The position numbers and the translations under genes are program-made. The notes under the pieces were generated by a model. The model was given only the letters and a program-made list of their open reading frames with translations, was not told the DNA's origin and made no database searches. A DNA stretch of 64,000 nucleotides from Giardia intestinalis (lineage: Eukaryota), in the NCBI GenBank assembly GCA_000002435.2, contig CM018793.1, one strand, 5' to 3'. Each line of letters opens with the position of its first letter. Position 1 is the first letter of the stretch. Of this stretch, positions 29,077-50,932 are shown one piece after another.

Positions 29077-32000
29077 CTAAAAGTACCCCGTCCCACAATA
29101 TGGGGACTTAGCATCGATGTCACTCTTTTTCAAGGATGTCTTGTTCTGGAGAATCAGATCCCAGCACCCAGGGAAATCAACTGGTATTGTCACGTGTTGA
29201 ATTGTATTTTCGTAGTAGTGATCTACACCGAAGTTCTGATCAATCTCAGCCAATTCCTCCTCACTCTGTGGTGGCGATGATGAGTAGCTCAGTGCCTCGT
29301 ACATCATGAGATAGCTATCTCTGGTCTTTACAGAGTCTGGAAGCATTGAGCTAGATGAGCTCTCGCATGGGACGAGGATTGCATAGATATCACAGTTGTT
29401 CGGATAGCTCAGACTCTCTGGGCTTATGTCCACGATTGTATTTAGCATATAATCATATCCAATCCCGTACAGTCGCATATTTGTGACCCTGACGGTGGCA
29501 AGCGGCATAGTGTGCTTGCGCTTCTGTCTTCTGTTATCTATCTTAGAGCATTGAATGCAATTTTGCCCATCATATCGCAAAAACCAATCTCTATAATACG
29601 TGGGGTCCAGAAGGGTAAAAACAATGGAATAATACCCCATTTCCAGGTTATATTTCAGACACATCTGGAGTTTGAAAAGCTTGAGGATGTCATGCATGAT
29701 CGGCTGATAGATATCGCCGCGAACAGACCATATGTTTTCAGAAAGCACTTTGATTGGATGAGACTGCTCTACCAACGAGTTGGATGTGAAGCCATATGTA
29801 AGCCTTCTGACCCTTTGATAGGTCTTACTGAGCAACAGGACAGCGTAAAGTGTTGGTGGTAAGGCCTTCTCGGCCCGGTCAACTTCTACAGATGAATAAG
29901 CGTTGCTGTGTATAGAGTGTGAAGCTATGTTGGATATTACGTCAGTTGATAGCATGAGACTGAATGCATCACGAACAGTACTTTGGCATCTCGATAGCTC
30001 TGGCCGCAAAAAGCATATCGGTTGAAGGGTATCTGCCAGCCGTTCTTGTAGTTCTTGAGTCCGTATTATTTCTGCAACGTTGGTATGTTTCATGGCAAAC
30101 TTTTCTAAGTCCATTGTAATGAGTTTAATTTTTTCCACTAAATCTATCAGAGTTCTTTCTGACATAGTCTCCGGAAAATGCAGTAGAGCATCCATCCTCG
30201 AAGATGCGTGAATTGTCACCATATGGCGCCGACTACTCAGAATCTTTTGTAGCTCTGCTCGAGAATAGGATCTGAATCCATCTGGGTCAGTGGCATTGAG
30301 CAACACGTTTGCGTTCAGTTCGTCCCCTGCTAACGTCATAAGCCGCGCACTTGTAGCCTGTGGGGCTCCATCCACCTGGCGCTGGTCTGCGTAAGTGTAA
30401 TCTGTCTTGAAAGAACACATAGATACATCGTCAATGGACGATTCAGCAGAAGAGAACACCGACCTGGAGTTGCTGATCTCCACATCACTGTTGTGTATGC
30501 TGGTTAGTGATGGATCAAAATCAGTGCGTTCCGCTTCCGCTTGATCGTGGGTGATTGTAGGGACCTCTTCATAGAATGAGGCTACGTTTAGTGACTTACT
30601 ATTCAGGTAGCTTATTGCAACACTGACAGAAGCATTAATCGGTGATCCAATCAATATAGCCGAGGACTTGCGATATATCAAGGAATAGAGGTTAGATAGG
30701 ACGTAACTGGTGTTTATCTCAGAACACGTATGACACAGAACAGAGTATATCATTGGCAAGTTTGCGATATGCGAAGCAGCTCCTTGTTTTTTAGTAAAGA
30801 AGAGCCGACGACCCTGGTTAGCGAGTGGCAGCGTTTTCAGTTGCGATATAAGGTGTACATACAAAAGGAGCATTTCATTGTCATCTACCTTGAACATTCC
30901 ATTACTGATCAGCATGCTGTATCTAATGGCGAGGAGCGTCAATGCTTTGACAAAGGAAGACTCGTAGACAGAGCAGCCAACTGAATGGGACAGTGTGTAG
31001 TTTCGCATAGTACTGATTGCATGTTGCATGGCATCCAAGAATGTTGTAGGTCGCTGCACATACAATTGGACGGGTCTACAAATGTCAATAAAGACGGCAA
31101 GCTGCACGCTAATGTTTTCCGGAGTTGCAGCTCCGCTTTCTGTCCCAAACTTCTGACAACAAGACAAAGGAACAAGGACATACACGAGATACGCTGGCTT
31201 GACGCCTGAACTGTACAGGTCTATTAAGTGTGCTAATGAATAATGAGGGTTATACCGTATATCAACTATTACGACATTAGTGGCTAAATACGAGGTGGCA
31301 GGTGCTGGCTGACAAACATAGTCTGGAAAGCCATACTTTGGTATAATTTCTTTTGAAAAAATTGCTTGCAGATATGGAAGGATTGCCAGGCCTTCGTCAT
31401 AGTACAGTAAAACGGTGCGCGAGCCGCGGCCCAATGATACCTGTTGTGTTGCCTCAAAATTGTATTCTTCCTGAAGATTCTTGAATAGCTGTGCCACATG
31501 GTCCAAATTGGCTGGATTTATGACTGAAAGGTCAAGGGGTCCATCGGCATCGCCGACAGCTCTCGTCTGAGTCTCTTTCCCTTCGGCTTGTAAATTACCT
31601 GCATCTATCGCTACCGCTGTTGCACTGGCCACTCGCGAAAGAAGGCCGTCGCTCAGGAGCTCGGCCTCATTGTTAGCTGAGCACCAGTCTGCCTTTGCTT
31701 TAGCGCGCAGGGATGCATCGTCCTGAAGAAACTTATGAATTGCTGATGGTGGAGTTATCCTACAGAAGAACTCCATTGTGCTAAGGATGAGATCTTGTCG
31801 AAGAGCTACAATAAGGAGAAGCGCGACCCAAATGTTCTCAAAGCTGGGATACTGCAGGCTAGGTGGCAGAGGAACCAACCGTGTGCTGTACGCTGCCAAC
31901 TCGTCATGCACATAGGGCGGGACAATCGGAACATGCGTCGTTTTCAGAGTCCTCATGCCCTCTTCTATCTCTTGCGCTACCGTGGCATCTAGGTTGATGT

Positions 32001-35000
32001 CATCGCCAGCGGTACGGTCAATGGCATCTGCGATTGCACTCTTGCTTGTCTCTGCTATGCCGAGCTCCGCTTGCTTAACCTTGTCGCTGGATTGTGCAGT
32101 CCTCTCTTTGTATAGATACGTACCCACTATCATTTTGTAAGCGTCTCCCGCAAAGTTTAGCAACGTAAAGACAGCCTTGTTATGAGTGAAGTACTCGTAC
32201 CAGTCAGAAAACCGTCGAGGATTGTATATGGAGAGCAAAGAGAAGAGCTTCCAACTGTACACCACGGTGGGGCTGCATCGAAAAGAAGTGGGACAGCTTG
32301 CTGCAATCTGGCGGGCATAGTTGTAGAGAGGCAAATGGCTATTAAACTTGTCAGAGAAATGGGAGACCAAGAACCTTATGTCATTGACTAGTATCATCTT
32401 GAGCTGAGTCAAATCGTCTGGATGGCCTAGCTTGAAGCACAGATTGTATATGGATATGAAAAGATTGATGTAGAGCCCCCGTTCTCGCTCTGGTAGCAGT
32501 AAGACAGTATTCTCTAAGATGTAGTGTGCAGTATTGACAATGGCAGTGAAGGCCCGAGATGGATTGGACCCTACGTGGTCGTCAAGATAGGAAAGGTGGC
32601 ACTCAAAGAAGTGGTCGGTGAAAACAGTCGCAATACTTGGGTGAATCAGGGACATCTGCCTCAACAGCAAGAGTATGCTTGTAATGGCTGTTCCAAAGTA
32701 TTTGGCATATTCGCTTATTGTCGAGCTTTCCGCGATTTTCTTTGCAAGCTCCTCTCTATGCTCTATACAGCGTTCTACTCCAATGCAGTACAGATTCATT
32801 TCGGCAAAGTCAAAGCCCTCACTGTCCTTAGATGCATGCTGTAGATGAACAAAAACAGCATTGGACTCTTCACGTTTGACCAAGCGACTCATGATCTCCT
32901 TCTTGGAAAGTATATACTTCTCGAGATTGTTTGCGATGTTCTCGATATTCCTGTGAAGTCTGTCAGAGCATTCAAGGCAGCTCTCACGGCGAACTATCTC
33001 AAGACCATCAAATCCGTTAACATAAAGGGAGTACACGCTTGAGAACTTTTCTGATATTTCGCGAAGCTTGTACTGCAGCTCATGTTCCGTCACAGATGGA
33101 TTTTGCATCCTAAGAAGATTGAGCGAGTTAGACTTAAACTGGAACTTGGGAGCGTTCAGAGTAGACATGTCACAGTTACGAAGATTGATAAAACCTGTTT
33201 CCAAGAGAAACTTAAGTGAAGCTCCTGTGGTAAGGACATAGTATATTCTATAGTCATGCAACGGGCGGACAATATCTACTGAGTATGTTGTTGTCACAGA
33301 CACTCTTGCATTTCTCTTTGTTAATCTGGACTCGATAAGCAGTGCTAGCTTTGTCAGTATCATCATGTTGAGCATTGGCATTGCTGCAGATCCAAAGTTC
33401 AGAAATACAATAGGCTTGTCTTGAAGCAGTGCATGCTTAAGAAGAGCCTCAAATATGGGTGGCGGAAGGTGACAATCTAAATATATCAAAAGCTTTCTAC
33501 GGACCTCGTGATAGTTATAGCAAGTTGATGGAGCGCCAAAACGCACGTTTGAAGGTAGCCTTTTGTATGACACCGCCGAATATTTTAGACTGGCTATCTG
33601 CTTTAGAAGATCTTCAAGCTCAGCTATAAGGTAGTGCATCTCATTGTACTGGGCAACGCCCTTTTCAGGCCTCTTGCCAGTGTCGCCATGACTGCCTTGT
33701 GTACCGAGCACTAGATCCTCGATGGTAGCGTTTATTGCTCCCGTCGCATTGTACTTCTCTAGCGCTTGCTCCACATTAACCCCCATGGCCGATAGCCGCT
33801 GCTTACAGTCTTCGAGACGAGCCTCTAATAAGTACACTTCGCAGGCGGGTATTATAATGCGTGCCAAATCGCTTGTCACAAAGAGGAACTTGAACCCAAA
33901 CTTGATGTACTGTAGTAGTATAATAATTTCTTGAATCAACTTTGGATCTGGATTACATAGTGAGCAAGTAAGTTGCGTCCTCCACCTGGGCCACATGAGG
34001 TCCTCGCAAAGCATGAGCAACCGTGAAGGGAGACCGTAGTTGGAAAGCATGTCTGACCGTTGGATCAACTCGTCGCTGGTTGAAAGATTAAACAAAGATT
34101 GCAGCATTACCGTGCTATTGTCAGAGTAGGAGGTGTTTAGGGAATTATTCATAATCTTTCTATTCTTGAGACACTCAAACAAGCCCAGTTCAAACTGCAC
34201 ACAATTGCCCCAAATGGATGTTATGAACGGGTAGAATAGCAGTCTGGCTGCAATAAGCGGTCCATCACAGCATGCATTTTGAAGCATGATCACGGCACGA
34301 ATAAAGTCCAGCTTAACCTTAAGCTTTATGGAAACAAGCTGGTCCCGGAGATAAATGATGTCGTTGCGGATAGAGGGCGAAAACAAGCCATTGCGAATGC
34401 CGTTATCAAAAAGGGTGATGCTGGACAGGATCTTTTGAATAAATGTGATTGTCTTCAAATGCTTTGCAATAAGCTCGTTTGTGTAATAGCTTGCAACTTC
34501 GGAGAAGCGCGCAAGACTGTATGGGATTGAATGTGAGACGTTCTGCATGCAGCACTTATAGATGCAGAGTGTAGTTTGGCAAAAGATCTCGCAGTACATA
34601 CTACTATATGCATCGTGAAGCGGGGTTTCTGAGTGCTCGTGCTGTGTGATAAAAGGCTTAGGGTCAAGATTATATGGAATATTTGATAGAATAAAGTAAG
34701 GGATTGCCCTAACGAGCTGCAGACTGGGCGTTGCTGTTTCAGACGCCTTGTATGAGCCTTGTAGTATATTCTCAGCAGTCCCTACTTGCAGCGAATGTAT
34801 CCTATCGTTCTCATCAATCGTGTGCCGTATGACCGGAAGCTCTTGCAATGGAAGAGGATGATCAACGCTAGTATCTGCGAATACCACCAGCGAAAAGGAT
34901 CTAGAGAGGATGTTGATAATCTCCTTCCCAGATAGCATGGTTGTGAGGCAGAAGTACTTGGCCAAGAGAGCACCCAGCACTCGAACTTCTCCGTTTGTGA

Positions 35001-38000
35001 AAAGGGACAATAGACTGCTACCAGACTCTACTATGGAAAGGATACCAATGGCAGGAGATTTGTTAAGGAGAGCATTAAATAAGGACATAGGGATCGTCAC
35101 CATAATATCTGTGGGTGTGGAGAGAAAGAGGTCAGTATATTCCTCTGCGTTGATTTCGAGACTACCCCTATTGATGTAGTGCAGTAGGTAGTCTGGAATT
35201 GTGGACGAACATCGATCACATAGATACGTTGACGAAGTGGGTGTAAAGTCCTGGAAGGCAATGAGCGGGTTAATACCTAATGCTATAAGAACTGCAGCTC
35301 GAATAATATAGTGGGATGCAGCCGCCTCGCTCTTGGCAGTGAGGGTCGAAACAAGGGCGTCAGTTAATTCTATCATAAGGTTCTCGGAAGCTACCGTTGT
35401 AGTCACCGGCCTTGATTGCAAGGACGAAGTAGTAATGTTATTTGGCTCAGGCTCAGAGTCCGACTCTGATCCTCCCACAGTTTGGTGCATAAGCGATTGA
35501 ATCATGGTCTGTGTATCTATTAGAATTCTTTGCCGCCGCTTGATGGCTATCTCTGTAGGTTCTTCAGTGATGGAGAGAAATGCACGGAGATCGAAGTTCT
35601 TGGCCGCATGAGCTAACAGTGGCCCATCACACTCAGAAAGACTTCGACCGGAGATAGTTTGATGCAGAGAAGTTACGCTACGGGAACAGGAAAAGCTGTT
35701 GGCTTGTGAATCGGCGTCAATACCAAAGCCCTCCATGTCTGAAGAAAAGGTCTGTTGTGCGACTTTTAGAAACGTCTTCCGATTGGAAATCCTATAGTTC
35801 CCCATAGTTTGGAGCGCATGCAAGAACGAGGAGTAGAGCGTCCCCGACATCTCTAGCTGAGACATCAGGAATACTGGCACACGCAGTGCTAATGCCTGCA
35901 TACTCTTGGCGTCTGCTGGAGAGTGTAGCTTAGAGAACAATCCCGGATTTCTTAGGTACTTAATATAGTAAAATACCTTTAAGGAATTCTGCTCCATAAG
36001 CATGGATATATCTATGGTAAGGGTGAATACTCTATTGCAAACAGTGGGGTCCATGGCATCCAGTAAACACTCGTGCACCACAGACGAGTGTACCTCAAAA
36101 ACTTGACGATTGATAGAATTGTTGTGTGGATTGTAAAAAAGCAGCTTAGCATAATGCTGTCGTGCTCTTGCACATGCGTCCACAAAATGCTTATATTTTC
36201 CCCCATCATTGAGTAGCTCAATGTCACCTGAATAGTGAAATCTCTTTATGCTGGAGCCAGACTTAAACTTCTGAGAGTCTATAAGGGTGCCATCTATATC
36301 ACCAGGGGCCTTGGAAATATTAGACGATGACGTTCCTGTGTTACAAAATGATCGCTTAAACACTGCCTTAAGAACTCGAAGTTCCCAGTTGGGAAGTGCC
36401 TGGACCCCTGTATGGGAGCTCATGGAAATGAGCGTATTGGTCCGAAGGTACTTGCTCATGTTTTCTGGATTTAGTGGTCCATATGGCCCATGTGGCGCCA
36501 GACGGCCTATTGCCACGGCAGATGCCAGTTCATCCAGTATGCAAGACACGTGGCTATGCTTAACAGCAGGGATATTGCGGAGTGCACCCATAAGCGATCC
36601 TAAGGTCACAGCGCTCAATTGAATGTTATCTAGATCTACAGAATCAATGTACTTTTGCAATCTTTTCATCTCAGAGATAACCCTGAGAATAGAGACAGGA
36701 AGATGGTATTCTACAAGCAATAGTCCCTCTATGAATTGCAGAAGGTAGGAGTCCGAGTACTCATATAGAAACTCTTGTTCTGGTTCCGTAACTCCAACAT
36801 AAAGATTGCAGTCGTATTTGTTTTTAGTATGTACAGAGGAAACACGCGGCTGAGGTGCAGATGCCACATGAGCTTGAGCAATCTTCGGTGCAAAAGAATC
36901 CAGATTGCTTAGCGACGGATGCTGAAAGTTGCGCTTCAACAACAGCAGTAAAAATTCCTTTGTGTTGTTCATTGGTGGAAGAACAAAGGTGAGTTCGCTA
37001 GCCAAGAAAAAGTCATACAGGTAAGAGCTCTCCACCACAATGGAAATGTTTGGCACAAATATCCCTGAAGAGAAGCGAGCCCCTGTAACACCAGTTAAAC
37101 CACACACAGGGGATCGTTCAGAGTTCTCCATAATAATATACTTTTCTCCCAGAAGCATGGACAGTCTGTCGTTCTGAACTGCAACCTGGGGTTCTGAAGC
37201 ACTAGCGACCAGAGACTCCAGCATAGAAAGCCTCTGTTCGTCAGCTGCGCCTCGTGCAACCAGGGCATCGTCGGAAACACGGTGAGCGATTGTACTTGTG
37301 AGCAAGTTCGTTACGGTTAAGTGGTAAAGAGGCAGCTTGCCGCTTGGAACATCTAAAATTATGCTTTGGTTGATATCCTTTGTCTCATCCAGCAGAGTGT
37401 TATCCTCAGTAACGTCAAGAATAGATAGAGGGCAACCGATAACAGAACTCGCTCTTGCTCTCTTTGCTTTGGAAGATGAGGAATAATGCGCTGCTTCAGA
37501 ACCGTCCTGGTGGGATGCGTTTGCTTCTATCGCAGTCTTTTGAGTACGGGCCGTTTGAATGTTGTGCAGGTAGCACGTACTTATCAGCTTTTGTAGCACT
37601 TCATCAAAGGAATCGATATCGAAAAGAGCAACACATTCGCGCCACACATACTTGCCTAGGAAAATCTCCGCGGCTCTTATATAGGTGCTTTTCCCTGAAA
37701 ACGCCTCTCCAATAAGACAGACGGAGAGCTTTGCCATGATAAAGCTGGACAAGTAGACGATAAATAAGATGCGCTCACAATCAAATGTTAATGTAAGTTC
37801 ATGCTTCGGGGTTGTGCTCTGGTCAAAGAGCCTTTCGAAAGACGCATCAGCAAATATTCCAGAAGAGCACATGTAGGGAAAATGCTGCACACAGAGCCTT
37901 CTTCCTTTATCTGATGCCACAAAATATAGAAAGGATCCATCAGAGTCTGAAACACCTAGATACGAATAAGCTGAAAGATCGTCGTCTTCATCTGCATAAT

Positions 38001-41000: not shown

Positions 41001-44000
41001 TCTTTGCATCTGCATATAGCTCTGTAAATGCAGCTCGAACCTGACCCTCATCAGATATAAATGATGCTACCTTCTCAGCTGTGGCTGCTCTAGAAAGATT
41101 TGGAATAGCCCGCATTATGTATAATGTCAGAGAATCTTCCATAATAGTCTGCAGTGTTCGTTCATGTTCAGCAATGCGTGCCAGTAGTGCCTGAATGTAC
41201 ATCCTTCTATCGTGCTTGTAATTCCGAAGTGAATAGCAAGAAGTAAGCGATTTATCAGTGAGTACGGTTGCTGTTCCTATTGCTACTGTTGCTACGGCCC
41301 TCTTGAACTCAGGCATACATTTGTAGTATAGCTGGAGAAAATTAACGGGAGAACCATCAAGATGCATAAACACAAGCGTGGATAGTGCGTAATGAACGCA
41401 CTGATAAAGGCATGAGCCTACTAACTCCTCATATCGCTCCTCCATAAGGAGGCGAAGCCCCTTCAAGTACTCCTTAATCAGGGCGGCACGGTGCACAGAG
41501 GGTGCAAACACGGAGGCCCCGAAAGCTGGTAACGTGTCTGGCATGTCTATGGGCTTTAGAAAACGCAGCTGCTCATACCCAGCGCACAACCCCGTTATCT
41601 GTAGACGAGTCGATGAGCCGGTGCCGGTCCGAAGCGTCATAATGTCGTAAATAGAGTTGCTAAATGCACTGCTAGATGTGTGGAACACAATGGGGCGAAG
41701 CTTTCCAGAGGGAACTAATGCTGAGGTGGAAGTGTAGATGTTGTTGTAGAGAACCGCACTCCGAATAAGTGGGCACCGCCGAATCAAATCACTAACGTGG
41801 TGCTGGCCCTGGGCATGGTAAGTAGCAGGAATACAAGGGATGCACGCATACTCTAAGGAAAGATTGCTGGTGAAAGAAGATACAAGCGGAAAACGTAGAA
41901 TTGTATCAGAAAACACTCCTAGAATGCTATCAGCCCGAGCTATATGTAAAGATAACGACCGGATAATATAAGGACAGCGCCGCACTATGCCCCGGAGAAG
42001 TCCAAAACTTCCCACTGTGGGTAGCAGAGATGGCTGCACAGGTGATCCTCTCAATGAGGTTATCTCACCGGATAGACAGCATGCATTCTCCTCAGAAGAC
42101 TCCTTGCAAAGGCTGTGCAGTTGACGCATGATATTGAGAAGAGAAACGACTTCAAGCAACGGGTCTTGAGAAGATAAGAAGGCTTTCCGTAACCGTGGAT
42201 GGGCACTTCCTAATGAAATACTGCAGAGATCCGGAAGTAGGAGCAGAAGCTCAGGAAGAATTGTCATTGCACGCTGAACACATATCGCTAGCGTGTGAAG
42301 GAGAATAAGCTCGGCTTCAAGTCTTCGAGCAACCGTCTGTGTGGACGGTGAATAGTCGTTGAAAAGGATGTAGGCAACTGCAAACATGGCTTCTCGTATA
42401 TACTCCACATGTCTTTTACAGCATACAAGGGTTGGTACACCCAACAAGGATTCCTTGCTTGTAAGATGATCGTGCTGGTTTGGTTGCTTTGTAGTAAGGT
42501 CAAGGCTTCCAGTTATAGACTGAGCACGACTCCGTGTCCGTACATCAGATGCAAGAACGATAGATCCTGCAAACAGATCCTTGTTTCGATCAAGTGACTG
42601 CATGGCAAACAGGCTGTCGTCACGACCTGCCTCTTCATCAACGGAGATATCGTCACTGATGCACTCAAAACTAGATAGTTGTGCCAGAGAGGAATCATCA
42701 GCTGCATCGGCTAGTATTCCCAAACGACTAGAGTAAGCCTCTAACACTTTCTCCTTTGCAAGTATGAGAGTGCGGACTTTCTGTAAAAGCGATGTAAGAG
42801 ATGATGCCTTACCTCCCATGACAGGACCAAGTTTGCTTGCAATTGTATGGTCTGAAAACTCTCCTTTTCCAGTGATCCCCCAGAACGCATAGAGTACAGA
42901 TAAAAGGTGCCCTGACCTGTGTGAAGCAGTCAGTGTGATTGGCTGGAAATTCAGGCCATTAATCCAATCATCAATCTTATTAAGTGTCACCATCGCCTGT
43001 CTATTAACTAAGCCCCGTGCATAAATGGCTGCGGCTGCTTCGAACATAGCATCAGTATTATCGTATAGGAAGAGGTGCTCTACGAGAATCGTACGATCAG
43101 GCTCGAAGTATGTATCGATAGGAGCTGCATGAATGGTTGGTGCACTCCTCAGGAAAGCGTTGAGACCGGTAACCTCACCAAACCCTGCTAGATCCTCTTC
43201 AATGGCGTCAGGGGAAGTCAAAAAGCATAGCAGAAAGAGCCGAGGAGTGATGGCCCGCAGATAGCAGTCTACCTGATCGGCAGTAGAGGTCCAGTTAGAA
43301 TATACGAAAGATGAACGAATAGTGGAGATGGACGTAGCACATATCTCGAGCAGAGTAACAAGGGCCCCGGCGTCTAGATCAATCAGTGCCTTTGAAGGAG
43401 CTGCCTTATAGAGCTGGTTCAGTTTCACAAATGAAGTTACCAGTAAACACAGCGGAAGTAATACTGCTTCGAGTTCGGCTGGCGAGTCAACTAGGTGCAT
43501 GTCTATATTGAGTGCCCTGCTCCAACTAGAAACCCGCAGATAGACGTTCTTAATTTCTTCTATCAAGATATAGAGCTCCATGAACATGCGGAAAACATCA
43601 TAGTGGGCCAAGCTTGGATGATCCACAGGGATGTCTGATTCCTTATTGTCGCATAGATGGCCATGCATGTAAGTTGACGCGACTATGAGACCTTGGCTAT
43701 TTCTTGAAGCAAACAAATCAGACCTCTCAGAGAATTCGAAGTTACAGTCCGTTACCAGAAGATAATCCAAAGGCGATGTTGGAGCCTGTATGGCGCTCTC
43801 TCTAGTAGATTGCTCCGACACACTGTCTGGGCACGGCCGAGAATAGAGATAGGGCCACCTGTAGCCTTGATATGGAAGCTGCCATCCAACATGATATTCA
43901 GTGAATTGACAAGGAAACTCTAACGCTCCATGCTCTGGTTCTAAAGATGAAGGGTGTTCTGTATGTTTATCTGCAGTAACTGGCTGATCCTCCTGAGATG

Positions 44001-47000
44001 CTAACTGAGTATTCAGAATTGGGAATCCATTGACTACTTCTGAGTTAATACTAATATGGATGCAGGTGTAGGCCTGAAGTGTTTTTATAACCTCTGTAAC
44101 AAGTAGAAGGTCGTTCCCCTCGAAATTTGAATACATTGTCTCTAAGTAAGGTATTTCAATGTTTTTACTAAAGATTGGAAACATCTTTCTGAATTGTAAG
44201 GGATTTGTTACCGCTAACTGAAAGTCTGAGAGTTGCATCTTAAGAACCTCGGACGAAATTGCGTAGAGAGCTCCGGTCACCTTGCTAAGCCAGTCTGAAA
44301 ACACCAACAGTACTCGTGAAAAAACGCGAATATGGCGCTTATAGTTAAATCGTGCATTCTTATAGGCATGGTTCACCCAACCTAGTTTAGCAGCCGCCTG
44401 TAATGCTACATGCAGTTCATTACTTGATAGAATTGATGGCTCAGTTGGACGAGGCGCTTGGGCCTGGCTCAAGGCCAGGTGAGGCCTTGGTGTCGTCTCG
44501 TTTTGATCAAAGGAACCTGAGAGTCCAAAAACAGTAGGGATTGTGTGGGTAATTGAATTTCTGATATCATATAAAGTGGAAAGACAATAGGAGTTGCTCA
44601 GTTTCGAGATTGGGCCAAGGAAGTCGCAAAGGTAGCATGCAACTGGAGTCCACTGCTTCACAAATAACCCGTGGTCCTCCATCACAACTAGGATTTTGGA
44701 TAGCTTGTCCAAGTTTAATGTTGTAATATTTAACACGGATTCTGTCAGCTGCAGCACCCGTAACATGTAAGAAGAAGCTTGCGTAATAATCTTTGAAATG
44801 GACTCGGTAATGTTTTGGCGTACTGTAATAAAGGCCGAAATAAGAGAAAGCTTAAAGTCGATAAGACTAACAGTAATACTGCCAGTGGAAACATATGAGG
44901 AAATGGCATAAGCATCTAGTATCTCTTGATCGATAGAACGAACCAGCTCAGCCGATATATGCACCATAAGTACAAGATAATCGACCCCCGACGAATTAGC
45001 CAAAGTAACAATATTCTCATTAGGGGACTCTCCTTTTAGAATAACGCTCACGTAATCCCTAGCAATGGTTTCGATAGCAGACAGCGAACGTACAAATCCT
45101 GGCGAGACCTTCATACTGTCTTCGCCCATGCTAGTATAAGGATTAGGTACTTGAGAAGTGTCAAAGCTTTGTGTCTCGTCATCAGGAGTTTCGCTGGGCA
45201 TTTGTGTTTTAAGTAAGTGTTCAGGAGGCGCTGAGTAGACAGATTTTACATCATCTGCGTCGAGGCTAACGTTTGGTAGTCCACTGTCTACAACGAGCTC
45301 AAAAGCTCGATAGAAGCTGCTAATGTTATTACATGTAGAGAGAAGCTCTACAAGTTTTATAGAAAGAGCCTCAAATAGGGTGTCTATTTGCTTCTTCACA
45401 ACAACATCAGTATCAGATGGTGCAATGAACGCAGTTAGGACAAGCGGAGAATCCATAGTGTCCTTCGCATATATAGGATCATTATCTACATCGGAAAAGT
45501 GCATAGCTGTTGTACTAGAGCTTTGTGGCGGCTTTTCTGTTCTGGACGACGGACAAAGGGGAGGAAGTTGCAAATGCATCCTAGGACGAACTATAGGCTC
45601 TAGAGGTATTAAGATATTAGATTGGCGCTGTTTCAAGCCAAGCCAGGACGAGAAAAATTGGTCCACCTCTTGATCAGGGTTTGACAGAAGTAAGTCTTGT
45701 GTTAGTGTGAATGCAAAGTCGTCTGAATCCGTCTGCGCAAGTTGTTTGACGTTGGAGAGAAGGGCTTTGCATATATATCTGGCTGTGGGGACCTCAAAGC
45801 TATACTTATCTAAGAAAAGCAAGGACCGCGTCCGTCTATCTAGAAGATTGCCCAGGGGACGAGAGTAAACAATGGCAGTTTTTTCGGTGGACGTGGGATC
45901 AAACGATAACTGAGGCGCTAGAACAAGAGAATTGATAGAAGAGATAGAAGACTCCGTGGTGTATAAGCAAAATGACAGCTCGCGAAGGCTTTGTTGTAAC
46001 CAAGCAAAACCTGTCACGGAAGTAGATTGGTGAGTGAAGCCAATACTTGAATTCTTAATAGTGAGTGTAGATGAAATGAACGGTGCGTACATTGATGAGT
46101 CTGTACGAAACTGAAGGCGGGGAAAGCCAGTCACTGATAGCAAACTATCCAGAAGATTACGACTCCACATCTCGTGCATCTGCAAAAAAATATTCCCGAT
46201 GTGTGTCTTTATTTGTTCAACCAATGTACGGAGAAAGCGGGGCCATATGCGATCGAAAGCTCTCATTAGGATGGCGTCGCTAGAAAGATCCTGATTCCCA
46301 TCTGCTAGAATAGAAAGCGCGGTATGAATTACGGAGAGTGGCAAGCCAGATGCAAGTAAGCGATCACGTCTGTCACTCTTCGTCTCGGAGGCCTCTTTGA
46401 GTGATTTGACACGAAGCTGTTTGATCTTTGTTGAAAAGTCAATAGAAAAGGTACTATCTGAAACGCATGTTGGAACAATGCTATCTACCACATAATTCAA
46501 CAGGCTCGACTGCAGAAGAGCAACTATTGTTGAACTTAATATCAAGGGAATGATCTTCTCTACGAAGTATAATCGAACAAGATAATACCGTTCCGCCATG
46601 TTAGATATGGGTAAGAACGATGAGAAAGGTTCCATTAATAGAGACCCGCGCTCCTCTGGTGTAGCTTCAGTTTCATACAGTATTGAAAGGTGTCTCCGTA
46701 GGAAAAGTTCAAGAGATTCGGATACATCTAACGCAGGCTTTTGATTGGCAGTCCTGAGGTTAGAGGTTAATGAGTCTGTGTCTTTCGTCTGTGAAGATAA
46801 AGCAGAAGTATTATGTAAGATTGTAGTAACTCTTTTATCCAGAAGAATTTGCAGATCAGTTTTGATTGCTGTACAAAGCTCCTCGTCTATAAAAAACTCT
46901 GTTGCAAGAGATGACACGATAAAATGAGGAATCTCTACAAGGGCGTCTTCTTCTACCTCGTGCGTACCATCAGGGAGAGGAGTAAGGAGACGAAGGACAT

Positions 47001-48339
47001 AATCAATGATTCTAAATATCTTATTCTGAAGCGCAATTAATAAAGGATCAAACTTAGAGCAAGAAAGAAGGCGGTCATGAGCATCCTGAAAGTGTGGCAC
47101 AGAGCAAGGAGGTAGACAGAAAAGCTCAACCCCATAAAGGGTTTTATGGGAAGGATCTACAAATAAGCGTGCGCCCTCTGCATGCTTTAGAGACAGTCTA
47201 GAATAGAAGCGCAAATGATCAAACCTATGGCGTGTATCAAGTCTGTTTGTTTCTAGAGCGTTCTCAACGATGCTTTTAGCAATAACGAACTTATACAATG
47301 AAGAAAGACCATGCAACTCGGCATCTTCTAGATCGTATTTCACTACCATTTCAGAATTTTCCTCGGACGTCTCAGAGGGCGCAAAAGTGAGTAAGCTTTT
47401 TGATATATAAACGCTTGGAACCATTATGTCCAATAGGTAACTGTTAGTGAGCGAGAACTGATCCTCCTGAAGATGTGCTAGTCCTGTTATTGAAGACTTT
47501 AATTCGTCAATGAATAGATGCTCGACACTATCAAGATCTAGCCCCTGGACAAACCCCTTACGCGATGAATACATTACTGTAAACCTTTCCCATTCCCTTT
47601 TAACTAGTACCTTAATCAAAGTAATAAGATGCTCATTTGGGCATACTCCATGCTTTAATACGGGATTCTGCTTAAAGAGGTGGTCGTTAGAGGTTGCAGG
47701 AAGGAGGTATCTGTTACGCCATGGAGTCGTAACTAACTTGTTAGAAGAGTCTGTGTCAAGACTGGAAGCATAAATATCGAGCTCAGGACTAGCCATAACT
47801 GCTTTAATCTCCTTATAGAATATGTTTCCAAGGATACTATTCAGGCTAGCATAACTATTCACGCGAACTAGGGCGAGTGGGGCAACCACTACTTCTCTCT
47901 TCATAAGCAGAACAGCTCGTCTGTATAGAAAATCAACATGGTATATCTGACACCACCTGTAATAGCCAGGCCGCACTAGTATATACCCAGGGCACCCTAA
48001 CTGCATTGGCACACAGTGAAACTGCAAACCATTAAAATTAATCCCTGTGGATATTTTGCTGCAGAAATCTTTTGCACATTGTGTGGTTAGGACTTCTATC
48101 AAATGGACTATTTCATTATGGCAAGAAGAAATTGGAAGTATTGTTGTTACTGCTTTAACTCGGTCTCCATTCTTGGCCTGAATTATGCTGCCTCCCATTG
48201 CTGTGTCGCGCTCGGTCTTCTGCAGCGAGCCTCCAAGAATCTGGGGAACCCGTAATGGTGTAGTGGATCTCTTCAACGACATTCCTTCGTGAAGACAATA
48301 AATATTTATCCTGTTTCTGGTTATCAAAGATAATTTCAT
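29077..48339 (-). CDS. Giant hypothetical protein, 6420 aa, single uninterrupted ORF; one Walker-A-like P-loop (GEAFSGKST) near residue 3540
   Basis: 19.3 kb with no stop in frame. ATG (cat) at 48337-39. Coding-like composition throughout. P-loop at plus-strand coordinates 37684-37710, minus strand. No dynein, midasin or other giant-family signature recognisable by eye. Confidence 0.7.
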   Translation of the reverse strand: MKLSLITRNRINIYCLHEGMSLKRSTTPLRVPQILGGSLQKTERDTAMGGSIIQAKNGDRVKAVTTILPISSCHNEIVHLIEVLTTQCAKDFCSKISTGINFNGLQFHCVPMQLGCPGYILVRPGYYRWCQIYHVDFLYRRAVLLMKREVVVAPLALVRVNSYASLNSILGNIFYKEIKAVMASPELDIYASSLDTDSSNKLVTTPWRNRYLLPATSNDHLFKQNPVLKHGVCPNEHLITLIKVLVKREWERFTVMYSSRKGFVQGLDLDSVEHLFIDELKSSITGLAHLQEDQFSLTNSYLLDIMVPSVYISKSLLTFAPSETSEENSEMVVKYDLEDAELHGLSSLYKFVIAKSIVENALETNRLDTRHRFDHLRFYSRLSLKHAEGARLFVDPSHKTLYGVELFCLPPCSVPHFQDAHDRLLSCSKFDPLLIALQNKIFRIIDYVLRLLTPLPDGTHEVEEDALVEIPHFIVSSLATEFFIDEELCTAIKTDLQILLDKRVTTILHNTSALSSQTKDTDSLTSNLRTANQKPALDVSESLELFLRRHLSILYETEATPEERGSLLMEPFSSFLPISNMAERYYLVRLYFVEKIIPLILSSTIVALLQSSLLNYVVDSIVPTCVSDSTFSIDFSTKIKQLRVKSLKEASETKSDRRDRLLASGLPLSVIHTALSILADGNQDLSSDAILMRAFDRIWPRFLRTLVEQIKTHIGNIFLQMHEMWSRNLLDSLLSVTGFPRLQFRTDSSMYAPFISSTLTIKNSSIGFTHQSTSVTGFAWLQQSLRELSFCLYTTESSISSINSLVLAPQLSFDPTSTEKTAIVYSRPLGNLLDRRTRSLLFLDKYSFEVPTARYICKALLSNVKQLAQTDSDDFAFTLTQDLLLSNPDQEVDQFFSSWLGLKQRQSNILIPLEPIVRPRMHLQLPPLCPSSRTEKPPQSSSTTAMHFSDVDNDPIYAKDTMDSPLVLTAFIAPSDTDVVVKKQIDTLFEALSIKLVELLSTCNNISSFYRAFELVVDSGLPNVSLDADDVKSVYSAPPEHLLKTQMPSETPDDETQSFDTSQVPNPYTSMGEDSMKVSPGFVRSLSAIETIARDYVSVILKGESPNENIVTLANSSGVDYLVLMVHISAELVRSIDQEILDAYAISSYVSTGSITVSLIDFKLSLISAFITVRQNITESISKIITQASSYMLRVLQLTESVLNITTLNLDKLSKILVVMEDHGLFVKQWTPVACYLCDFLGPISKLSNSYCLSTLYDIRNSITHTIPTVFGLSGSFDQNETTPRPHLALSQAQAPRPTEPSILSSNELHVALQAAAKLGWVNHAYKNARFNYKRHIRVFSRVLLVFSDWLSKVTGALYAISSEVLKMQLSDFQLAVTNPLQFRKMFPIFSKNIEIPYLETMYSNFEGNDLLLVTEVIKTLQAYTCIHISINSEVVNGFPILNTQLASQEDQPVTADKHTEHPSSLEPEHGALEFPCQFTEYHVGWQLPYQGYRWPYLYSRPCPDSVSEQSTRESAIQAPTSPLDYLLVTDCNFEFSERSDLFASRNSQGLIVASTYMHGHLCDNKESDIPVDHPSLAHYDVFRMFMELYILIEEIKNVYLRVSSWSRALNIDMHLVDSPAELEAVLLPLCLLVTSFVKLNQLYKAAPSKALIDLDAGALVTLLEICATSISTIRSSFVYSNWTSTADQVDCYLRAITPRLFLLCFLTSPDAIEEDLAGFGEVTGLNAFLRSAPTIHAAPIDTYFEPDRTILVEHLFLYDNTDAMFEAAAAIYARGLVNRQAMVTLNKIDDWINGLNFQPITLTASHRSGHLLSVLYAFWGITGKGEFSDHTIASKLGPVMGGKASSLTSLLQKVRTLILAKEKVLEAYSSRLGILADAADDSSLAQLSSFECISDDISVDEEAGRDDSLFAMQSLDRNKDLFAGSIVLASDVRTRSRAQSITGSLDLTTKQPNQHDHLTSKESLLGVPTLVCCKRHVEYIREAMFAVAYILFNDYSPSTQTVARRLEAELILLHTLAICVQRAMTILPELLLLLPDLCSISLGSAHPRLRKAFLSSQDPLLEVVSLLNIMRQLHSLCKESSEENACCLSGEITSLRGSPVQPSLLPTVGSFGLLRGIVRRCPYIIRSLSLHIARADSILGVFSDTILRFPLVSSFTSNLSLEYACIPCIPATYHAQGQHHVSDLIRRCPLIRSAVLYNNIYTSTSALVPSGKLRPIVFHTSSSAFSNSIYDIMTLRTGTGSSTRLQITGLCAGYEQLRFLKPIDMPDTLPAFGASVFAPSVHRAALIKEYLKGLRLLMEERYEELVGSCLYQCVHYALSTLVFMHLDGSPVNFLQLYYKCMPEFKRAVATVAIGTATVLTDKSLTSCYSLRNYKHDRRMYIQALLARIAEHERTLQTIMEDSLTLYIMRAIPNLSRAATAEKVASFISDEGQVRAAFTELYADAKSQACITAMSCGVHPNVHMHHIISTLPYGLPTESALTEASSSASCGELTDWRKDRVYTTHNQNFLSQKNDETLLVTCANVAIPIIAQYTGKASLLDCIPLNYRQLQAVSQLGISMQSRIPAFLVGDTMRSYNNIDYLIIVHTLCRYFGMRYEFVFCSPATDPDALLHRLCTRILGGRYVVLCGVEFLEESQLNGLINVLSSYNLAKGAVPTVEQADTGPLDFSILHSTGKDAIFPGGYAICLPEAVYEGSKLSLTIRGERLRKLFPMHSLIEIKDYGTLVPVSLLQQTNALLYDLCLEARASTNNVDLHSHKSKATEEQITNFFAEKNLSTEYRLSVSDDIPITALNFDALYPHCNCKHQTEANQLGHLFLQRSSQYGPKLYEISLFLNTAGLSTPQLRPEDVDLVLKRCKDMSNPISVATSLSAFLLSQTTLRPARDIVSRVIEGAFVLQPQHKAVLNSVVSLLNVLHGVQEPNDIDIGMLISRKTHHGTDSNFTANNIAKVWKTLKQMYTPTYAEFCETLSQEFALLEPVGIDALALCLDMLSLGPVVLLPPSTSVLQGTKGTGLTIPQLSNKSVTAQLVKSRALSSITLRQSHFQLLVVFSQLVAKVGKLRPFFIHSLADLHENIRTIMYLGSQALLIFIFNPPSGTLARSMLSSITALQSYYPELELYYNIRAKFDFFNKPRCLLLVTAYETASIIGSNVGSVQRRLIVVPEYLKFSTMLNNYVGRHLHLAEDEQLTEKSRKLFTVTSLIDMKTSALSIQYLQSLCSRRTTAELKGECLAEKRLRLGSKLFGAFITCLTDNLMRREFSIVPSHIVWTLYRQLLVLFLTSFRVLVLSPCHPEAYATFEPIPEVMNTQLYQLDSYLSLHTITSSTPLAKYDSYMQLQSAPRTAFFSVSFSVTYLQNFIYEALDNLSVIINLFLPIYAAVFNALHVLHVMYFKRPLNKLSKIYKKGLVECVYRPEKFVAHVMSMFADSAQLLNKSDLDDAMALLPDLFPEHYADEDDDLSAYSYLGVSDSDGSFLYFVASDKGRRLCVQHFPYMCSSGIFADASFERLFDQSTTPKHELTLTFDCERILFIVYLSSFIMAKLSVCLIGEAFSGKSTYIRAAEIFLGKYVWRECVALFDIDSFDEVLQKLISTCYLHNIQTARTQKTAIEANASHQDGSEAAHYSSSSKAKRARASSVIGCPLSILDVTEDNTLLDETKDINQSIILDVPSGKLPLYHLTVTNLLTSTIAHRVSDDALVARGAADEQRLSMLESLVASASEPQVAVQNDRLSMLLGEKYIIMENSERSPVCGLTGVTGARFSSGIFVPNISIVVESSYLYDFFLASELTFVLPPMNNTKEFLLLLLKRNFQHPSLSNLDSFAPKIAQAHVASAPQPRVSSVHTKNKYDCNLYVGVTEPEQEFLYEYSDSYLLQFIEGLLLVEYHLPVSILRVISEMKRLQKYIDSVDLDNIQLSAVTLGSLMGALRNIPAVKHSHVSCILDELASAVAIGRLAPHGPYGPLNPENMSKYLRTNTLISMSSHTGVQALPNWELRVLKAVFKRSFCNTGTSSSNISKAPGDIDGTLIDSQKFKSGSSIKRFHYSGDIELLNDGGKYKHFVDACARARQHYAKLLFYNPHNNSINRQVFEVHSSVVHECLLDAMDPTVCNRVFTLTIDISMLMEQNSLKVFYYIKYLRNPGLFSKLHSPADAKSMQALALRVPVFLMSQLEMSGTLYSSFLHALQTMGNYRISNRKTFLKVAQQTFSSDMEGFGIDADSQANSFSCSRSVTSLHQTISGRSLSECDGPLLAHAAKNFDLRAFLSITEEPTEIAIKRRQRILIDTQTMIQSLMHQTVGGSESDSEPEPNNITTSSLQSRPVTTTVASENLMIELTDALVSTLTAKSEAAASHYIIRAAVLIALGINPLIAFQDFTPTSSTYLCDRCSSTIPDYLLHYINRGSLEINAEEYTDLFLSTPTDIMVTIPMSLFNALLNKSPAIGILSIVESGSSLLSLFTNGEVRVLGALLAKYFCLTTMLSGKEIINILSRSFSLVVFADTSVDHPLPLQELPVIRHTIDENDRIHSLQVGTAENILQGSYKASETATPSLQLVRAIPYFILSNIPYNLDPKPFITQHEHSETPLHDAYSSMYCEIFCQTTLCIYKCCMQNVSHSIPYSLARFSEVASYYTNELIAKHLKTITFIQKILSSITLFDNGIRNGLFSPSIRNDIIYLRDQLVSIKLKVKLDFIRAVIMLQNACCDGPLIAARLLFYPFITSIWGNCVQFELGLFECLKNRKIMNNSLNTSYSDNSTVMLQSLFNLSTSDELIQRSDMLSNYGLPSRLLMLCEDLMWPRWRTQLTCSLCNPDPKLIQEIIILLQYIKFGFKFLFVTSDLARIIIPACEVYLLEARLEDCKQRLSAMGVNVEQALEKYNATGAINATIEDLVLGTQGSHGDTGKRPEKGVAQYNEMHYLIAELEDLLKQIASLKYSAVSYKRLPSNVRFGAPSTCYNYHEVRRKLLIYLDCHLPPPIFEALLKHALLQDKPIVFLNFGSAAMPMLNMMILTKLALLIESRLTKRNARVSVTTTYSVDIVRPLHDYRIYYVLTTGASLKFLLETGFINLRNCDMSTLNAPKFQFKSNSLNLLRMQNPSVTEHELQYKLREISEKFSSVYSLYVNGFDGLEIVRRESCLECSDRLHRNIENIANNLEKYILSKKEIMSRLVKREESNAVFVHLQHASKDSEGFDFAEMNLYCIGVERCIEHREELAKKIAESSTISEYAKYFGTAITSILLLLRQMSLIHPSIATVFTDHFFECHLSYLDDHVGSNPSRAFTAIVNTAHYILENTVLLLPERERGLYINLFISIYNLCFKLGHPDDLTQLKMILVNDIRFLVSHFSDKFNSHLPLYNYARQIAASCPTSFRCSPTVVYSWKLFSLLSIYNPRRFSDWYEYFTHNKAVFTLLNFAGDAYKMIVGTYLYKERTAQSSDKVKQAELGIAETSKSAIADAIDRTAGDDINLDATVAQEIEEGMRTLKTTHVPIVPPYVHDELAAYSTRLVPLPPSLQYPSFENIWVALLLIVALRQDLILSTMEFFCRITPPSAIHKFLQDDASLRAKAKADWCSANNEAELLSDGLLSRVASATAVAIDAGNLQAEGKETQTRAVGDADGPLDLSVINPANLDHVAQLFKNLQEEYNFEATQQVSLGRGSRTVLLYYDEGLAILPYLQAIFSKEIIPKYGFPDYVCQPAPATSYLATNVVIVDIRYNPHYSLAHLIDLYSSGVKPAYLVYVLVPLSCCQKFGTESGAATPENISVQLAVFIDICRPVQLYVQRPTTFLDAMQHAISTMRNYTLSHSVGCSVYESSFVKALTLLAIRYSMLISNGMFKVDDNEMLLLYVHLISQLKTLPLANQGRRLFFTKKQGAASHIANLPMIYSVLCHTCSEINTSYVLSNLYSLIYRKSSAILIGSPINASVSVAISYLNSKSLNVASFYEEVPTITHDQAEAERTDFDPSLTSIHNSDVEISNSRSVFSSAESSIDDVSMCSFKTDYTYADQRQVDGAPQATSARLMTLAGDELNANVLLNATDPDGFRSYSRAELQKILSSRRHMVTIHASSRMDALLHFPETMSERTLIDLVEKIKLITMDLEKFAMKHTNVAEIIRTQELQERLADTLQPICFLRPELSRCQSTVRDAFSLMLSTDVISNIASHSIHSNAYSSVEVDRAEKALPPTLYAVLLLSKTYQRVRRLTYGFTSNSLVEQSHPIKVLSENIWSVRGDIYQPIMHDILKLFKLQMCLKYNLEMGYYSIVFTLLDPTYYRDWFLRYDGQNCIQCSKIDNRRQKRKHTMPLATVRVTNMRLYGIGYDYMLNTIVDISPESLSYPNNCDIYAILVPCESSSSSMLPDSVKTRDSYLMMYEALSYSSSPPQSEEELAEIDQNFGVDHYYENTIQHVTIPVDFPGCWDLILQNKTSLKKSDIDAKSPYCGTGYF

Positions 48340-48340
48340 C

Positions 48341-48830
48341 AGTTGTACGGTGATTCACTCCACCCACCGGTTGCTTCCAGCGCTGTGCTGCCGGGCCGCC
48401 TGCAGGCACGATTCAAAAATCTCACGAGTAAATTCTCGTTCAAGCTCTGGCCAGTTCAGAGACGACTGTTGGTCATTGATAACATAATGAGAGAGTCCTC
48501 TCTAGTGATATATCCAGAGCCTGGCACATTCCTCTGCCATTTCATGAGCGTGTGCTCAATCCGGGTGTGCGCGTCGGTCTGCCCAGGATTCAGGCCTTCT
48601 CGCAGACCCTCTGCTCTACCGGTGGTGCCTCTCCTTGGCCTGCCGTCTGGTGGGTGAAGCTCGGGTTGCTGTCTTTTTTAGATGCTCCCATCTGTCAAGG
48701 GCTGCCACCGGGCTCTCCGCTGGCTGGGCCCTCGGTGCCCGTCCGGCTGTGGCTCGAGTCAGGGCTCCCACAGTCGCGGTCACCTGGGTCTCAGTGGGCC
48801 GGCTGGTGGGACCGGGTGGGGGGTGTTGTA
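48341..48830 (+). repeat. Arm A of an inverted repeat (VSP-3'-flank-like element, about 85% identical to arm B), abutting the start codon of the giant gene
   Basis: The reverse complement of 48345-48690 aligns with 50600-50870 and with 59031-59360. Shared blocks include ccaggattcaggccttctcgcagaccctctgctctaccggtgg and cttttttagatgc. Homology continues, with more decay, to about 48830 versus about 50420. Confidence 0.75.
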
Positions 48831-50870: not shown

Positions 50871-50925
50871 AATGCACCGCAGGCGGACCTATCAGCACAT
50901 CTACACAAGCTACGCACAGTAACGC

Positions 50926-50932
50926 GTTTACT
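50926..50932 (-). promoter_or_regulatory. Giardia polyadenylation signal AGTAAAC, 10 nt after the VSP stop (TAGACTTAGGTAGTAAAC)
   Basis: Matches the established Giardia AGTPuAAPy consensus. The context TAG-ACTTAGGT-AGTAAAC is the conserved VSP 3' end. Confidence 0.7.

Follow-up and report, generated by a model that had tools for sequence, protein, structure and literature searches.

The 64,000-nucleotide stretch of Giardia intestinalis contig CM018793.1 analyzed here (the window) carries on its minus strand a single open reading frame of 6420 aa plus stop (Table 1). The ORF list and the translation, which starts at an ATG and contains no internal stop, bear out the preliminary description of this DNA, in which the frame was reported as uninterrupted. 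The product is identical to XP_001708036.1, the Giardia lamblia WB protein GL50803_137711, annotated as a "hypothetical protein". A newer RefSeq model (XP_001708036.2) comprises 6401 aa and begins at M20, and because the M20 ATG is immediately preceded by an AT-rich stretch the actual product is probably of this shorter length. The protein is Leu- and Ser-rich, no internal repeats were found in it by self-BLAST, and literature queries with the gene identifier returned nothing relevant to it. Transcripts were present at all encystation time points in a published RNA-seq matrix (Table S1, PMC8700996), whilst the gene is not listed in the supplements of two proteomic studies or of one localisation atlas; the evidence of expression called for in the preliminary description was obtained for RNA but not from the two proteome supplements. 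The sequence 5' of the gene pairs as inverted repeats with two further segments of the window at 80–93% complementarity, and these arms adjoin genes matching Pfam VSP, in agreement with the earlier proposal that the flank derives from a VSP-flank repeat.

Table 1. Features of the GL50803_137711 locus, with positions as numbered in the window
Feature	Position	Strand	Basis
Complete ORF, GL50803_137711	29077..48339	-	Translation, RefSeq match, transcript table (PMC8700996)
Candidate start codon, M20 of ORF	48280..48282	-	XP_001708036.2 and AT-rich stretch upstream; presumed start choice
5' flank, inverted-repeat arm common to VSP gene cluster	48350..48810	.	Partners 50474-50873 and 59064-59360
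N-terminal ~2230 aa, no recognisable domain	41650..48339	-	Conservation profile; no Pfam match in homologues; no transmembrane segments
Predicted AAA+ module A, alpha/beta (large) domain, aa ~2540-2700	40240..40722	-	
Predicted module A helical lid (small domain), aa ~2800-2960	39460..39942	-	Helices 140-241 of AF2 model
Predicted AAA+ module B, alpha/beta domain, aa ~3040-3200	38740..39222	-	AF2 model residues 270-403
Module C, aa ~3500-3830	36850..37842	-	Alignments; putative AAA+ fold from module spacing and motifs
Walker A GEAFSGKST, aa 3544-3552	37684..37710	-	Regex, alignment, homologue scan
Candidate further degenerate module, aa ~4975-5060	33160..33417	-	Alignment; putative
C-terminal domain, aa ~6180-6420	29080..29802	-	Conservation profile and invariant columns

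Full-length collinear homologues of GL50803_137711 were found in G. muris (GMRT_14745) and in three other assemblies, with 20–27% identity, and conservation was judged on a five-species full-length alignment. As far as seen, the family appears restricted to Giardia and close relatives. Within the N-terminal ~2230 aa conservation is moderate from aa ~1000 onwards and several polar linkers are present, and this part of the protein may represent a tail or linker region. Conservation is highest in the C-terminal domain, which contains the blocks 'W.xRGDxYxP', 'VTxMRL..IAYD..L.T.VD.SPE', 'V.VP' and 'KGAFCGTGYF'. A likeness of this domain to the dynein C-terminal domain was noted by eye and was unstable in hhalign. 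Classification as a membrane protein was rejected because no convincing transmembrane segments were present, and we interpret the product as a soluble giant protein.

Searches with sequences and profiles placed GL50803_137711 in no canonical family. Pfam gave no real match to the protein in three and then in ten tiles, nor to any of five homologues covered at full length by four tiles, with noise only (AAA_29, E 0.08), and in the homologues no dynein domain appeared at even E=1; the dynein families AAA_6/7/8/9, Dynein_heavy, DHC_N2 and Dynein_C were absent from the protein tiles at E<=10. Neither phmmer nor hmmsearch/profile searches against PDB sequences produced a match. When hhalign was run against profiles of real dyneins (AAA1-2 and C-terminal), matches were confined to the P-loop, with probabilities <2% elsewhere, and the top dynein alignments shifted with changed tile boundaries. 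Dynein HMMs run against the giant proteins, with shuffled controls, gave noise-level scores. The absence of canonical dynein, midasin and VPS13 signatures, previously judged by eye, extends to sensitive searches that were negative apart from the P-loop, and as the product is not canonical no member of such a family had been overlooked. Individual candidates were also rejected: midasin, with no VWA or AAA_5 Pfam match in any homologue and an AAA region that begins only at aa ~2540; VPS13/bridge-like lipid transfer proteins, with no Pfam match (Chorein_N) and a modelled region that is alpha/beta AAA+ rather than beta-groove; and hydin, with no ASH domains.

The pattern [AG]xxxxGK[ST] matched once in the 6420 aa, at aa 3544 (GEAFSGKST), which is the lone Walker A motif already recognized in the preliminary description. 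At least one chance match occurred in 16.2% of 5000 residue shuffles of the protein. Despite this rate the motif is not considered a chance occurrence, since the five-species alignment shows no variation at G3544, G3549 or K3550 and each homologue contains exactly one Walker A, always in the same alignment column. Against dynein the motif scores highest with the AAA3 P-loop (30.2), ahead of those of AAA2 (28.2), AAA4 (27.6) and AAA1 (26.0). This only intact Walker A is preceded by a conserved hydrophobic strand, 'LSVCLIG', and the surrounding region, module C, also contains a candidate Walker-B strand 'SIILD', whose D3663 is not universally conserved, an invariant H3673, a strand 'SIVVE' with the invariant E3770, and a disordered insert of ~100 aa. 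For the P-loop tile, AF2 gave a model with a pLDDT of only 38.8, which was left unused.

A second AF2 model (m05d5098b86b5), made from a compact homologue fragment corresponding to aa ~2545-3180, had a pLDDT of 64.2 with 185 residues >=70; it is one model, of medium confidence, for a fragment of a metagenomic homologue, and was generated from a 7-sequence alignment. It displays two alpha/beta domains with a helical lid between them, corresponding to two tandem AAA+ modules (A and B) with degenerate P-loops, and covers two of a presumed six modules. To conclude from the single P-loop noted in the preliminary description that multi-AAA organization is lacking does not hold, because the model places two AAA+ modules with decayed P-loops 500–1000 aa upstream of the P-loop. 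In module A the P-loop position reads GDTMRSYNN, and GK[ST] is missing from this module in every homologue as well, whilst in the Walker-B strand 'CGVEFL' G2628 and E2630 are invariant, E2630 being equivalent to the Walker-B Glu. The module A lid holds the conserved block 'FG..LYEISLFL.T.G.STP.L.P.DVD.I..R..D'. In module B the P-loop is deleted or degenerate ('VAKVGKLRPFFIHSL'). Module C is presumably also AAA+, given its motifs and a first-strand spacing of 494 aa from A to B and 477 aa from B to C. Further downstream, the candidate module contains 'KPIVFLNFGS...PLHDYRIYYVL' with invariant L5027, H5028 and Y5030, and the top dynein match of block 4960-5019, which lies in AAA5 (DYNC1H1 ~3677-3701), scores weakly at 16.8. 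Comparison of modules with family profiles in hhalign detected no similarity among the putative modules.

When the homologue-fragment model was compared with the PDB by Foldseek, 126 matches were obtained at E<=1e-3, essentially all to AAA+ proteins. The top three were dyneins (5vh9_A, 4.5e-7; 7z8h, 7.5e-7; 4rh7, 1.8e-6), with TM-scores of only ~0.3 and with ClpA, Cdc48, RNF213 (E = 1.6e-5) and Rea1 close behind. Dynein ranked first in both independent structure searches and gave the longest aligned stretches. In the fold comparison, of the kind suggested in the preliminary description, dynein motors were the best match of the homologue fragment.

Similarity to the dynein motor was also assessed by a custom collinearity test in which 60-aa profile blocks were matched to DYNC1H1 and the best monotone chain was taken. 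The block chain gave z 3.2–4.4 (p<=0.002), with a phase-dependent strength (z positive throughout, 1.3–3.9, at other block sizes and phases, but down to 1.3–2.4 for some phases), and Spearman rho was 0.29 (p 0.0099) for global best matches and 0.48 (p 0.0026) for the stronger matches. Controls consisting of locally shuffled dynein and nine unrelated Giardia targets gave z of -2.0 to +1.9 and rho of ~0, and with reversed dynein and reversed block order z still reached up to 2.8. In this custom test the weak dynein matches appear to keep the order of the dynein motor all the way from the end of the linker to the C-terminus, those in hhalign and HMMER not being significant. The best single match was between block 2800-2859, in the module A lid, and DYNC1H1 2139-2163 ('PKLVAEDIPLLFSLLSD'), which belongs to the AAA1 lid, with a score of 29.2 vs 19.4 for the next best; in hhalign the lid gave P=0.04. 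Around a dozen dynein-like motifs, with three competing AAA1 registers, were picked out by eye and serve as leads only. One AAA1 register has independent support, being the only one that agrees with the model strands and the lid match.

Taken with the structure matches and the collinearity, the AF2 model indicates that GL50803_137711 probably contains a chain of dynein-like AAA+ modules in which a single nucleotide-binding loop survives. We lean towards the reading, at somewhat better than an even chance, that it is an extremely diverged multi-AAA+ relative of the dynein heavy chains, its dynein membership being unproven. The family, described earlier as unclear, is still not a canonical one, but is narrowed to a dynein-like AAA+ giant. 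The protein would begin with a tail/linker of ~2200-2500 aa, followed by AAA+ modules at intervals of ~485 aa (A at ~2560, B at ~3060 and C at ~3540, with others likely downstream) and then by the conserved C-terminal domain. Nucleotide-binding loops appear to have decayed in all but module C, at the AAA3-equivalent position, with the same decay in all five known homologues. The modules may close into a single-chain ring, in which ATP binding at the one site would set the conformation of ring and linker, much as at the regulatory AAA3 of dynein or in the AAA core of RNF213.

In dynein heavy chains the catalytic AAA1 has both Walker motifs intact (A, GPAGTGKT; B, DE), and this site drives the power stroke. 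As the AAA1 site is missing from GL50803_137711, we infer that the protein would act as a nucleotide-gated AAA+ ring, either a conformational switch or a scaffold, and not as a processive microtubule motor. Like dynein heavy chains it is a giant single chain in which a long putative N-terminal tail precedes serially joined AAA+ modules, each with a large domain and a lid. Of its motif matches, the strongest is with the AAA1 lid of dynein, and some AAA sites (AAA5, AAA6) are naturally degenerate in dyneins too. It differs from them in the missing AAA1 Walker A, in having one P-loop rather than four, in a module spacing of ~485 rather than ~340 aa, in a length greater by ~1800 aa, and in showing no evident long antiparallel coiled-coil stalk or microtubule-binding domain. 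RNF213 (mysterin) is likewise a giant with a dynein-like core of six AAA modules, most of its sites inactive, and its nucleotide binding acts as a switch and does not drive a motor; however, no RING/E3 module and no sequence similarity to RNF213 were detected in GL50803_137711, and RNF213 occurs in metazoans whereas the present family was seen only in Giardia and relatives. Midasin (Rea1/Mdn1) has six mostly intact N-terminal P-loops, a D/E-rich region and a C-terminal MIDAS/VWA, all of which are absent from GL50803_137711. DNHD1 and the 'orphan' dyneins are comparable as divergent dynein heavy chains with unusual motors, but the orphan dyneins were found through sequence similarity to dynein motors, and searches of that kind do not detect GL50803_137711. 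Kollmar (2016; PMC5100056) mentions an orphan diplomonad dynein whose tail is unique and finds no recognisable cytoplasmic dynein-1 heavy chain in Giardia.

If GL50803_137711 is a dynein relative, a 'hypothetical protein' lacking domain annotation, presumably encoded by one of the largest Giardia genes, would prove to be a member of the dynein family diverged past the reach of Pfam and HMMs, with a bearing on how far the scaffold of the motor can drift and on the role of a ring with one nucleotide site. It would also bear on the cell biology of Giardia, which has an elaborate microtubule cytoskeleton and reportedly no cytoplasmic dynein-1 (PMC5100056), and would indicate that orphan giant proteins can be placed by predicting the structure of a compact homologue and pairing it with collinearity statistics. 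A more specific form of this reading, which we regard as unlikely, is that the protein represents a hitherto unrecognised, deeply diverged dynein heavy chain class in which AAA1 catalysis and the canonical stalk were lost, leaving a one-site nucleotide-gated giant repurposed to serve a Giardia-specific cytoskeletal structure; such a class could be descended from the cytoplasmic dynein-1 that Giardia reportedly lacks.

Rather unlikely, too, is that GL50803_137711 is a single-chain multi-AAA+ protein not of dynein descent, belonging to another ring family (midasin/MoxR-like or RNF213-like) or arising by independent tandem expansion, so that its resemblance to dynein would reflect convergence or a general property of AAA+ modules linked in one chain. 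Consistent with such an origin, a crude heptad scan of the protein found only short conserved segments (aa 1578-1612, 2001-2028 and 4666-4691) and no ~100-aa stalk-like coiled-coil helices, and the only active site lies in the third module, which resembles RNF213, whose active sites are reportedly AAA3 and AAA4 (Ahel et al. 2020). However, a non-dynein origin does not readily account for dynein being first in both structure searches with the longest aligned stretches, for collinearity that runs from the linker end to the C-terminus, or for a strongest block match to the dynein AAA1 lid; moreover, Pfam found no VWA/MIDAS or RING/E3 module, and Giardia reportedly possesses a separate, recognisable midasin (Garbarino & Gibbons 2002).

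We consider it improbable that the protein is a lineage-specific giant helical scaffold with a lone P-loop NTPase domain; the AAA+-like model and its matches to dynein would then be artefacts of predicting generic Rossmann-like segments from a shallow alignment. The uniformly negative sequence and profile searches, the Leu- and Ser-rich composition, the poor P-loop tile model and the medium confidence of the second model speak for such a scaffold. Against it stand the 126 PDB chains, essentially all of them AAA+, the fit of the model's strand order and lid to the conserved blocks, with the invariant G2628/E2630 falling in the Walker-B strand, and a collinearity signal that is independent of the AF2 model.

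It is very improbable that the long ORF represents a misannotation or a pseudogene in decay and not one functional protein: published protein-level support is absent from the two proteome and one localisation-atlas supplements, and the gene seems split in one relative (P0019 and P0021, both with a longest contig of 27,917 bases and consistent with one contig), but the stop-free 19.3-kb frame recurs with conserved length and order in five or more divergent genomes, conservation reaches the final residues and transcripts occur at every time point, and GL50803_137711 is a real, transcribed Giardia gene.

Translation confirmed the uninterrupted ORF of the preliminary description, and a regular-expression scan of its product (the giant) gave the lone Walker A motif, GEAFSGKST, also reported there. 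By itself this single match is weak evidence, since 16.2% of residue shuffles of the giant contained at least one. The protein is rich in Leu (13%) and Ser (10%); no internal repeats and no convincing transmembrane segments were found within it. Exact-sequence look-up identified it as XP_001708036.1, hypothetical protein GL50803_137711 of Giardia lamblia ATCC 50803. In the newer model XP_001708036.2 (6401 aa) the first residue is M20 of the ORF, and the M20 ATG is probably a likelier start than the first ATG because an AT-rich stretch directly precedes it. The 5' flank proved to be VSP-repeat derived, as proposed. NCBI and UniRef list the orthologue from a different G. intestinalis isolate (ESU35472.1, 6416 aa) as 'Translation initiation inhibitor'; for a protein of ~6400 aa that lacks any such domain, the label was almost certainly carried over from an annotation error.

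With aa 2481-3680 as query, phmmer run exhaustively over 1.84 billion representative proteins returned eight matches only: four full-length giants (5911-7361 aa), including Giardia muris GMRT_14745, three fragments and one spurious match. The five full-length giants are collinear across >5000 aligned positions at an identity of merely 20-27%, with conservation from approximately aa 1000 through the extreme C-terminus. Each homologue has one Walker A, always at the column of aa 3544, and G3544, G3549 and K3550 are invariant in the five-protein alignment. The collinear homologues and invariant P-loop residues argue that the ORF is a conserved gene whose Walker A is under selection. Two homologue fragments, P0019 (843 aa) and P0021 (290 aa), correspond to neighbouring stretches of the giant family and are both listed with a longest contig of 27,917 bases; the gene may be split or frameshifted in that relative, or the gene call there fragmented. 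Expression was seen at the RNA level, the RNA-seq matrix of PMC8700996 including the gene with values of 7.3-8.3 (unit unconfirmed) at every encystation time point; it was absent from the supplements of two organelle/secretome proteomes and one localisation atlas, and the main text of no paper found names it.

Sequence searches bore out the earlier statement that the family is unclear. Pfam gave nothing on tiles of the giant and generic P-loop noise only (AAA_29, E 0.08) on four tiles spanning the full length of all homologues. Searches of all PDB sequences by phmmer and profiles detected no dynein, midasin, RNF213 or VPS13, and with dynein HMMs the scores of the giants did not rise above noise. 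With hhalign and profiles made from real dynein fragments fetched from databases, the P-loop alone aligned (probability 30-62%); elsewhere probabilities were <2% and alignments shifted with tile boundaries.

Structure prediction added to this picture. For aa 3290-4200, the tile that contains the P-loop, AlphaFold2 with six sequences gave a pLDDT of 38.8 and this model was not used. The compact 436-aa metagenomic homologue fragment P0020, corresponding to giant aa ~2545-3180, was modelled from a seven-sequence alignment with medium confidence (pLDDT 64.2, 185 residues ≥70), and the order of its domains is predicted to be AAA+ large domain, lid, then next large domain. Module A, the first such unit, has PAFLVG as its first strand; DTMRSYNN, without GK[ST], occupies its P-loop position, and its third strand, VVLCGVEFL, carries G2628 and E2630, both invariant, at the position of Walker B. 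Foldseek of the model against PDB gave 126 matches at E≤1e-3, the top three being dynein motor domains (5vh9_A 4.5e-7, 7z8h 7.5e-7, 4rh7 1.8e-6), followed by ClpA, Cdc48, RNF213 and Rea1 mixed with more dyneins. From the model and these matches, the P-loop previously described as solitary is predicted to be accompanied upstream by at least two further AAA+ modules, A and B, which have lost their own P-loops. First-strand spacing of 494 aa (A to B) and 477 aa (B to C, the P-loop module) is even, which suggests a series of modules.

Because single matches to dynein were insignificant, a collinearity test was run asking whether such matches keep dynein's order. The target was a 2990-aa composite of a real linker fragment (P0027) and human dynein heavy chain DYNC1H1 1866-4646, the latter validated against database sequences: residues 2218-4206 aligned 1:1 with PDB chains (4568 bits), and the C-terminal and AAA1-AAA2 parts were 100% identical to database fragments over full length and over 61-69% of length, respectively. 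Eighty giant-family profile blocks of 60 aa (aa 1600-6420) were locally aligned to this target, and the best order-preserving chain compared with 1000 block-order permutations gave z 3.2-4.4 (p≤0.002, score thresholds 8-14); with the block size or phase altered, z ranged from 1.3 to 3.9 and was never negative. Block order correlated with position of the global best match (Spearman rho 0.29, p 0.0099, n=80; rho 0.48, p 0.0026 for matches scoring ≥16). Controls with dynein locally shuffled in 20-, 30- and 60-aa windows gave z -2.0 to 0.6, and nine targets of unrelated Giardia proteins z -1.05 to 1.9, with rho -0.08 to 0.10 for eight of the nine. When both dynein and the block order were reversed, some signal persisted (z 1.0-2.8), so architecture, and not homology at the level of residues, may account for part of the effect. 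Two single matches were the strongest. Block 2800-2859, which sits where a lid is expected after module A, matched the dynein AAA1 lid (PKLVAEDIPLLFSLLSD) at 29.2 (next-best 19.4), and the P-loop block scored 30.2 with AAA3, 28.2 with AAA2, 27.6 with AAA4 and 26.0 with AAA1. The P-loop scores fit A, B and C as AAA1, AAA2 and AAA3.

Taken as a whole, the giant is best explained, with moderate confidence, as a hyper-divergent dynein-like multi-AAA+ protein; its multi-AAA+ nature taken alone is somewhat more likely. The interpretation in the preliminary description is thereby upheld in part. A dynein-like fold is supported structurally by a single model, of medium confidence, for a metagenomic homologue, and dynein similarity reached significance by no sequence method. 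Unlike dynein, all giant homologues lack the catalytic AAA1 Walker A, and modules are ~485 aa rather than ~340; a crude scan found no ~100-aa conserved heptad helices of a stalk. An independent tandem AAA+ array is possible, as is midasin-like or RNF213-like ancestry. Neither a MIDAS nor an E3 module was detectable in the giant. A separate midasin is reportedly present in Giardia (Garbarino & Gibbons 2002). A dynein relative hidden in Giardia is biologically plausible because cytoplasmic dynein-1 is reported to be missing there and diplomonads have orphan dyneins (Kollmar, PMC5100056), a report that does not identify GL50803_137711 with such a relative.

As a dynein-like protein, the giant would form a single-chain ring from modules A, B, C and presumed others, with a tail/linker of ~2200-2500 aa ahead and a conserved C-terminal domain after. 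Nucleotide would be bound solely at the AAA3-equivalent site. The AAA1 site drives dynein's cycle; with its equivalent apparently dead, one AAA3-equivalent site and a candidate module C Walker-B Asp whose conservation is not universal, a processive motor is unlikely. The favoured role would be that of a scaffold or conformational switch gated by nucleotide, akin to the regulatory AAA3 of dynein or the AAA core of RNF213.

Features of the window, the giant and the P0020 model (nt unless stated)
Feature	Position	Strand	Remarks
207-bp repeat	1-3405		sixteen head-to-tail copies; first 15 100% identical, last 72%
Repeat-bearing ORF	116-3316	+	1066 aa; GC 60-64%; no Pfam match; holds 207-bp repeats
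ORF with CFAP74 Ig-like domains	5025-12266	-	2413 aa; PF24771 7e-13, PF24798 2e-5
Four ORFs	12702-14198, 17449-18894, 18898-22623, 27221-29038		no Pfam match
RFC-like AAA ATPase	14204-15259	-	ordinary neighbour
Protein kinase with ankyrin repeats	15521-17404	-	ordinary neighbour
LRR-PP2C phosphatase	22728-25163	+	ordinary neighbour
TFIIB/Rrn7-like factor	25173-26171	-	ordinary neighbour
Giant ORF	29077-48339	-	6420 aa; ATG start; no internal stop
Walker A GEAFSGKST	37684-37710 (plus-strand coordinates)	-	aa 3544; single regex match
5' flank of giant	48350-48810	.	inverted-repeat arm common to adjoining VSP cluster
VSP cluster	48350-62629		several direct and inverted repeats
Inverted repeat	48648-48810, 50474-50636		arms 93% complementary
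Direct repeat	50605-50873, 59031-59299		97% identical
VSP gene	50941-52533	-	
VSP gene	52698-54497	-	
VSP gene	60455-62629	+	
E1 ORF fragment	63016-63864	-	ubiquitin-activating enzyme domains UBA_E1_SCCH, E1_UFD; near window end
Module A	giant aa ~2560-2700		mapped from P0020 model via alignment
Module B	from giant aa ~3060		P-loop essentially missing; mapped from P0020 model
First alpha/beta domain	P0020 strands 25-29, 54-59, 81-86, 121-130		AlphaFold2
Five-helix bundle	P0020 140-241		AlphaFold2
Second alpha/beta domain	P0020 270-403		AlphaFold2

Elsewhere in the window, the 207-bp array appears to encode a 69-aa protein repeat that has been perfectly homogenised, and the ORF with Ig-like domains probably encodes the Giardia central-apparatus protein CFAP74. 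The boundary of the giant gene and the VSP cluster is marked by an increase in GC content, from ~45% to 52-58%.
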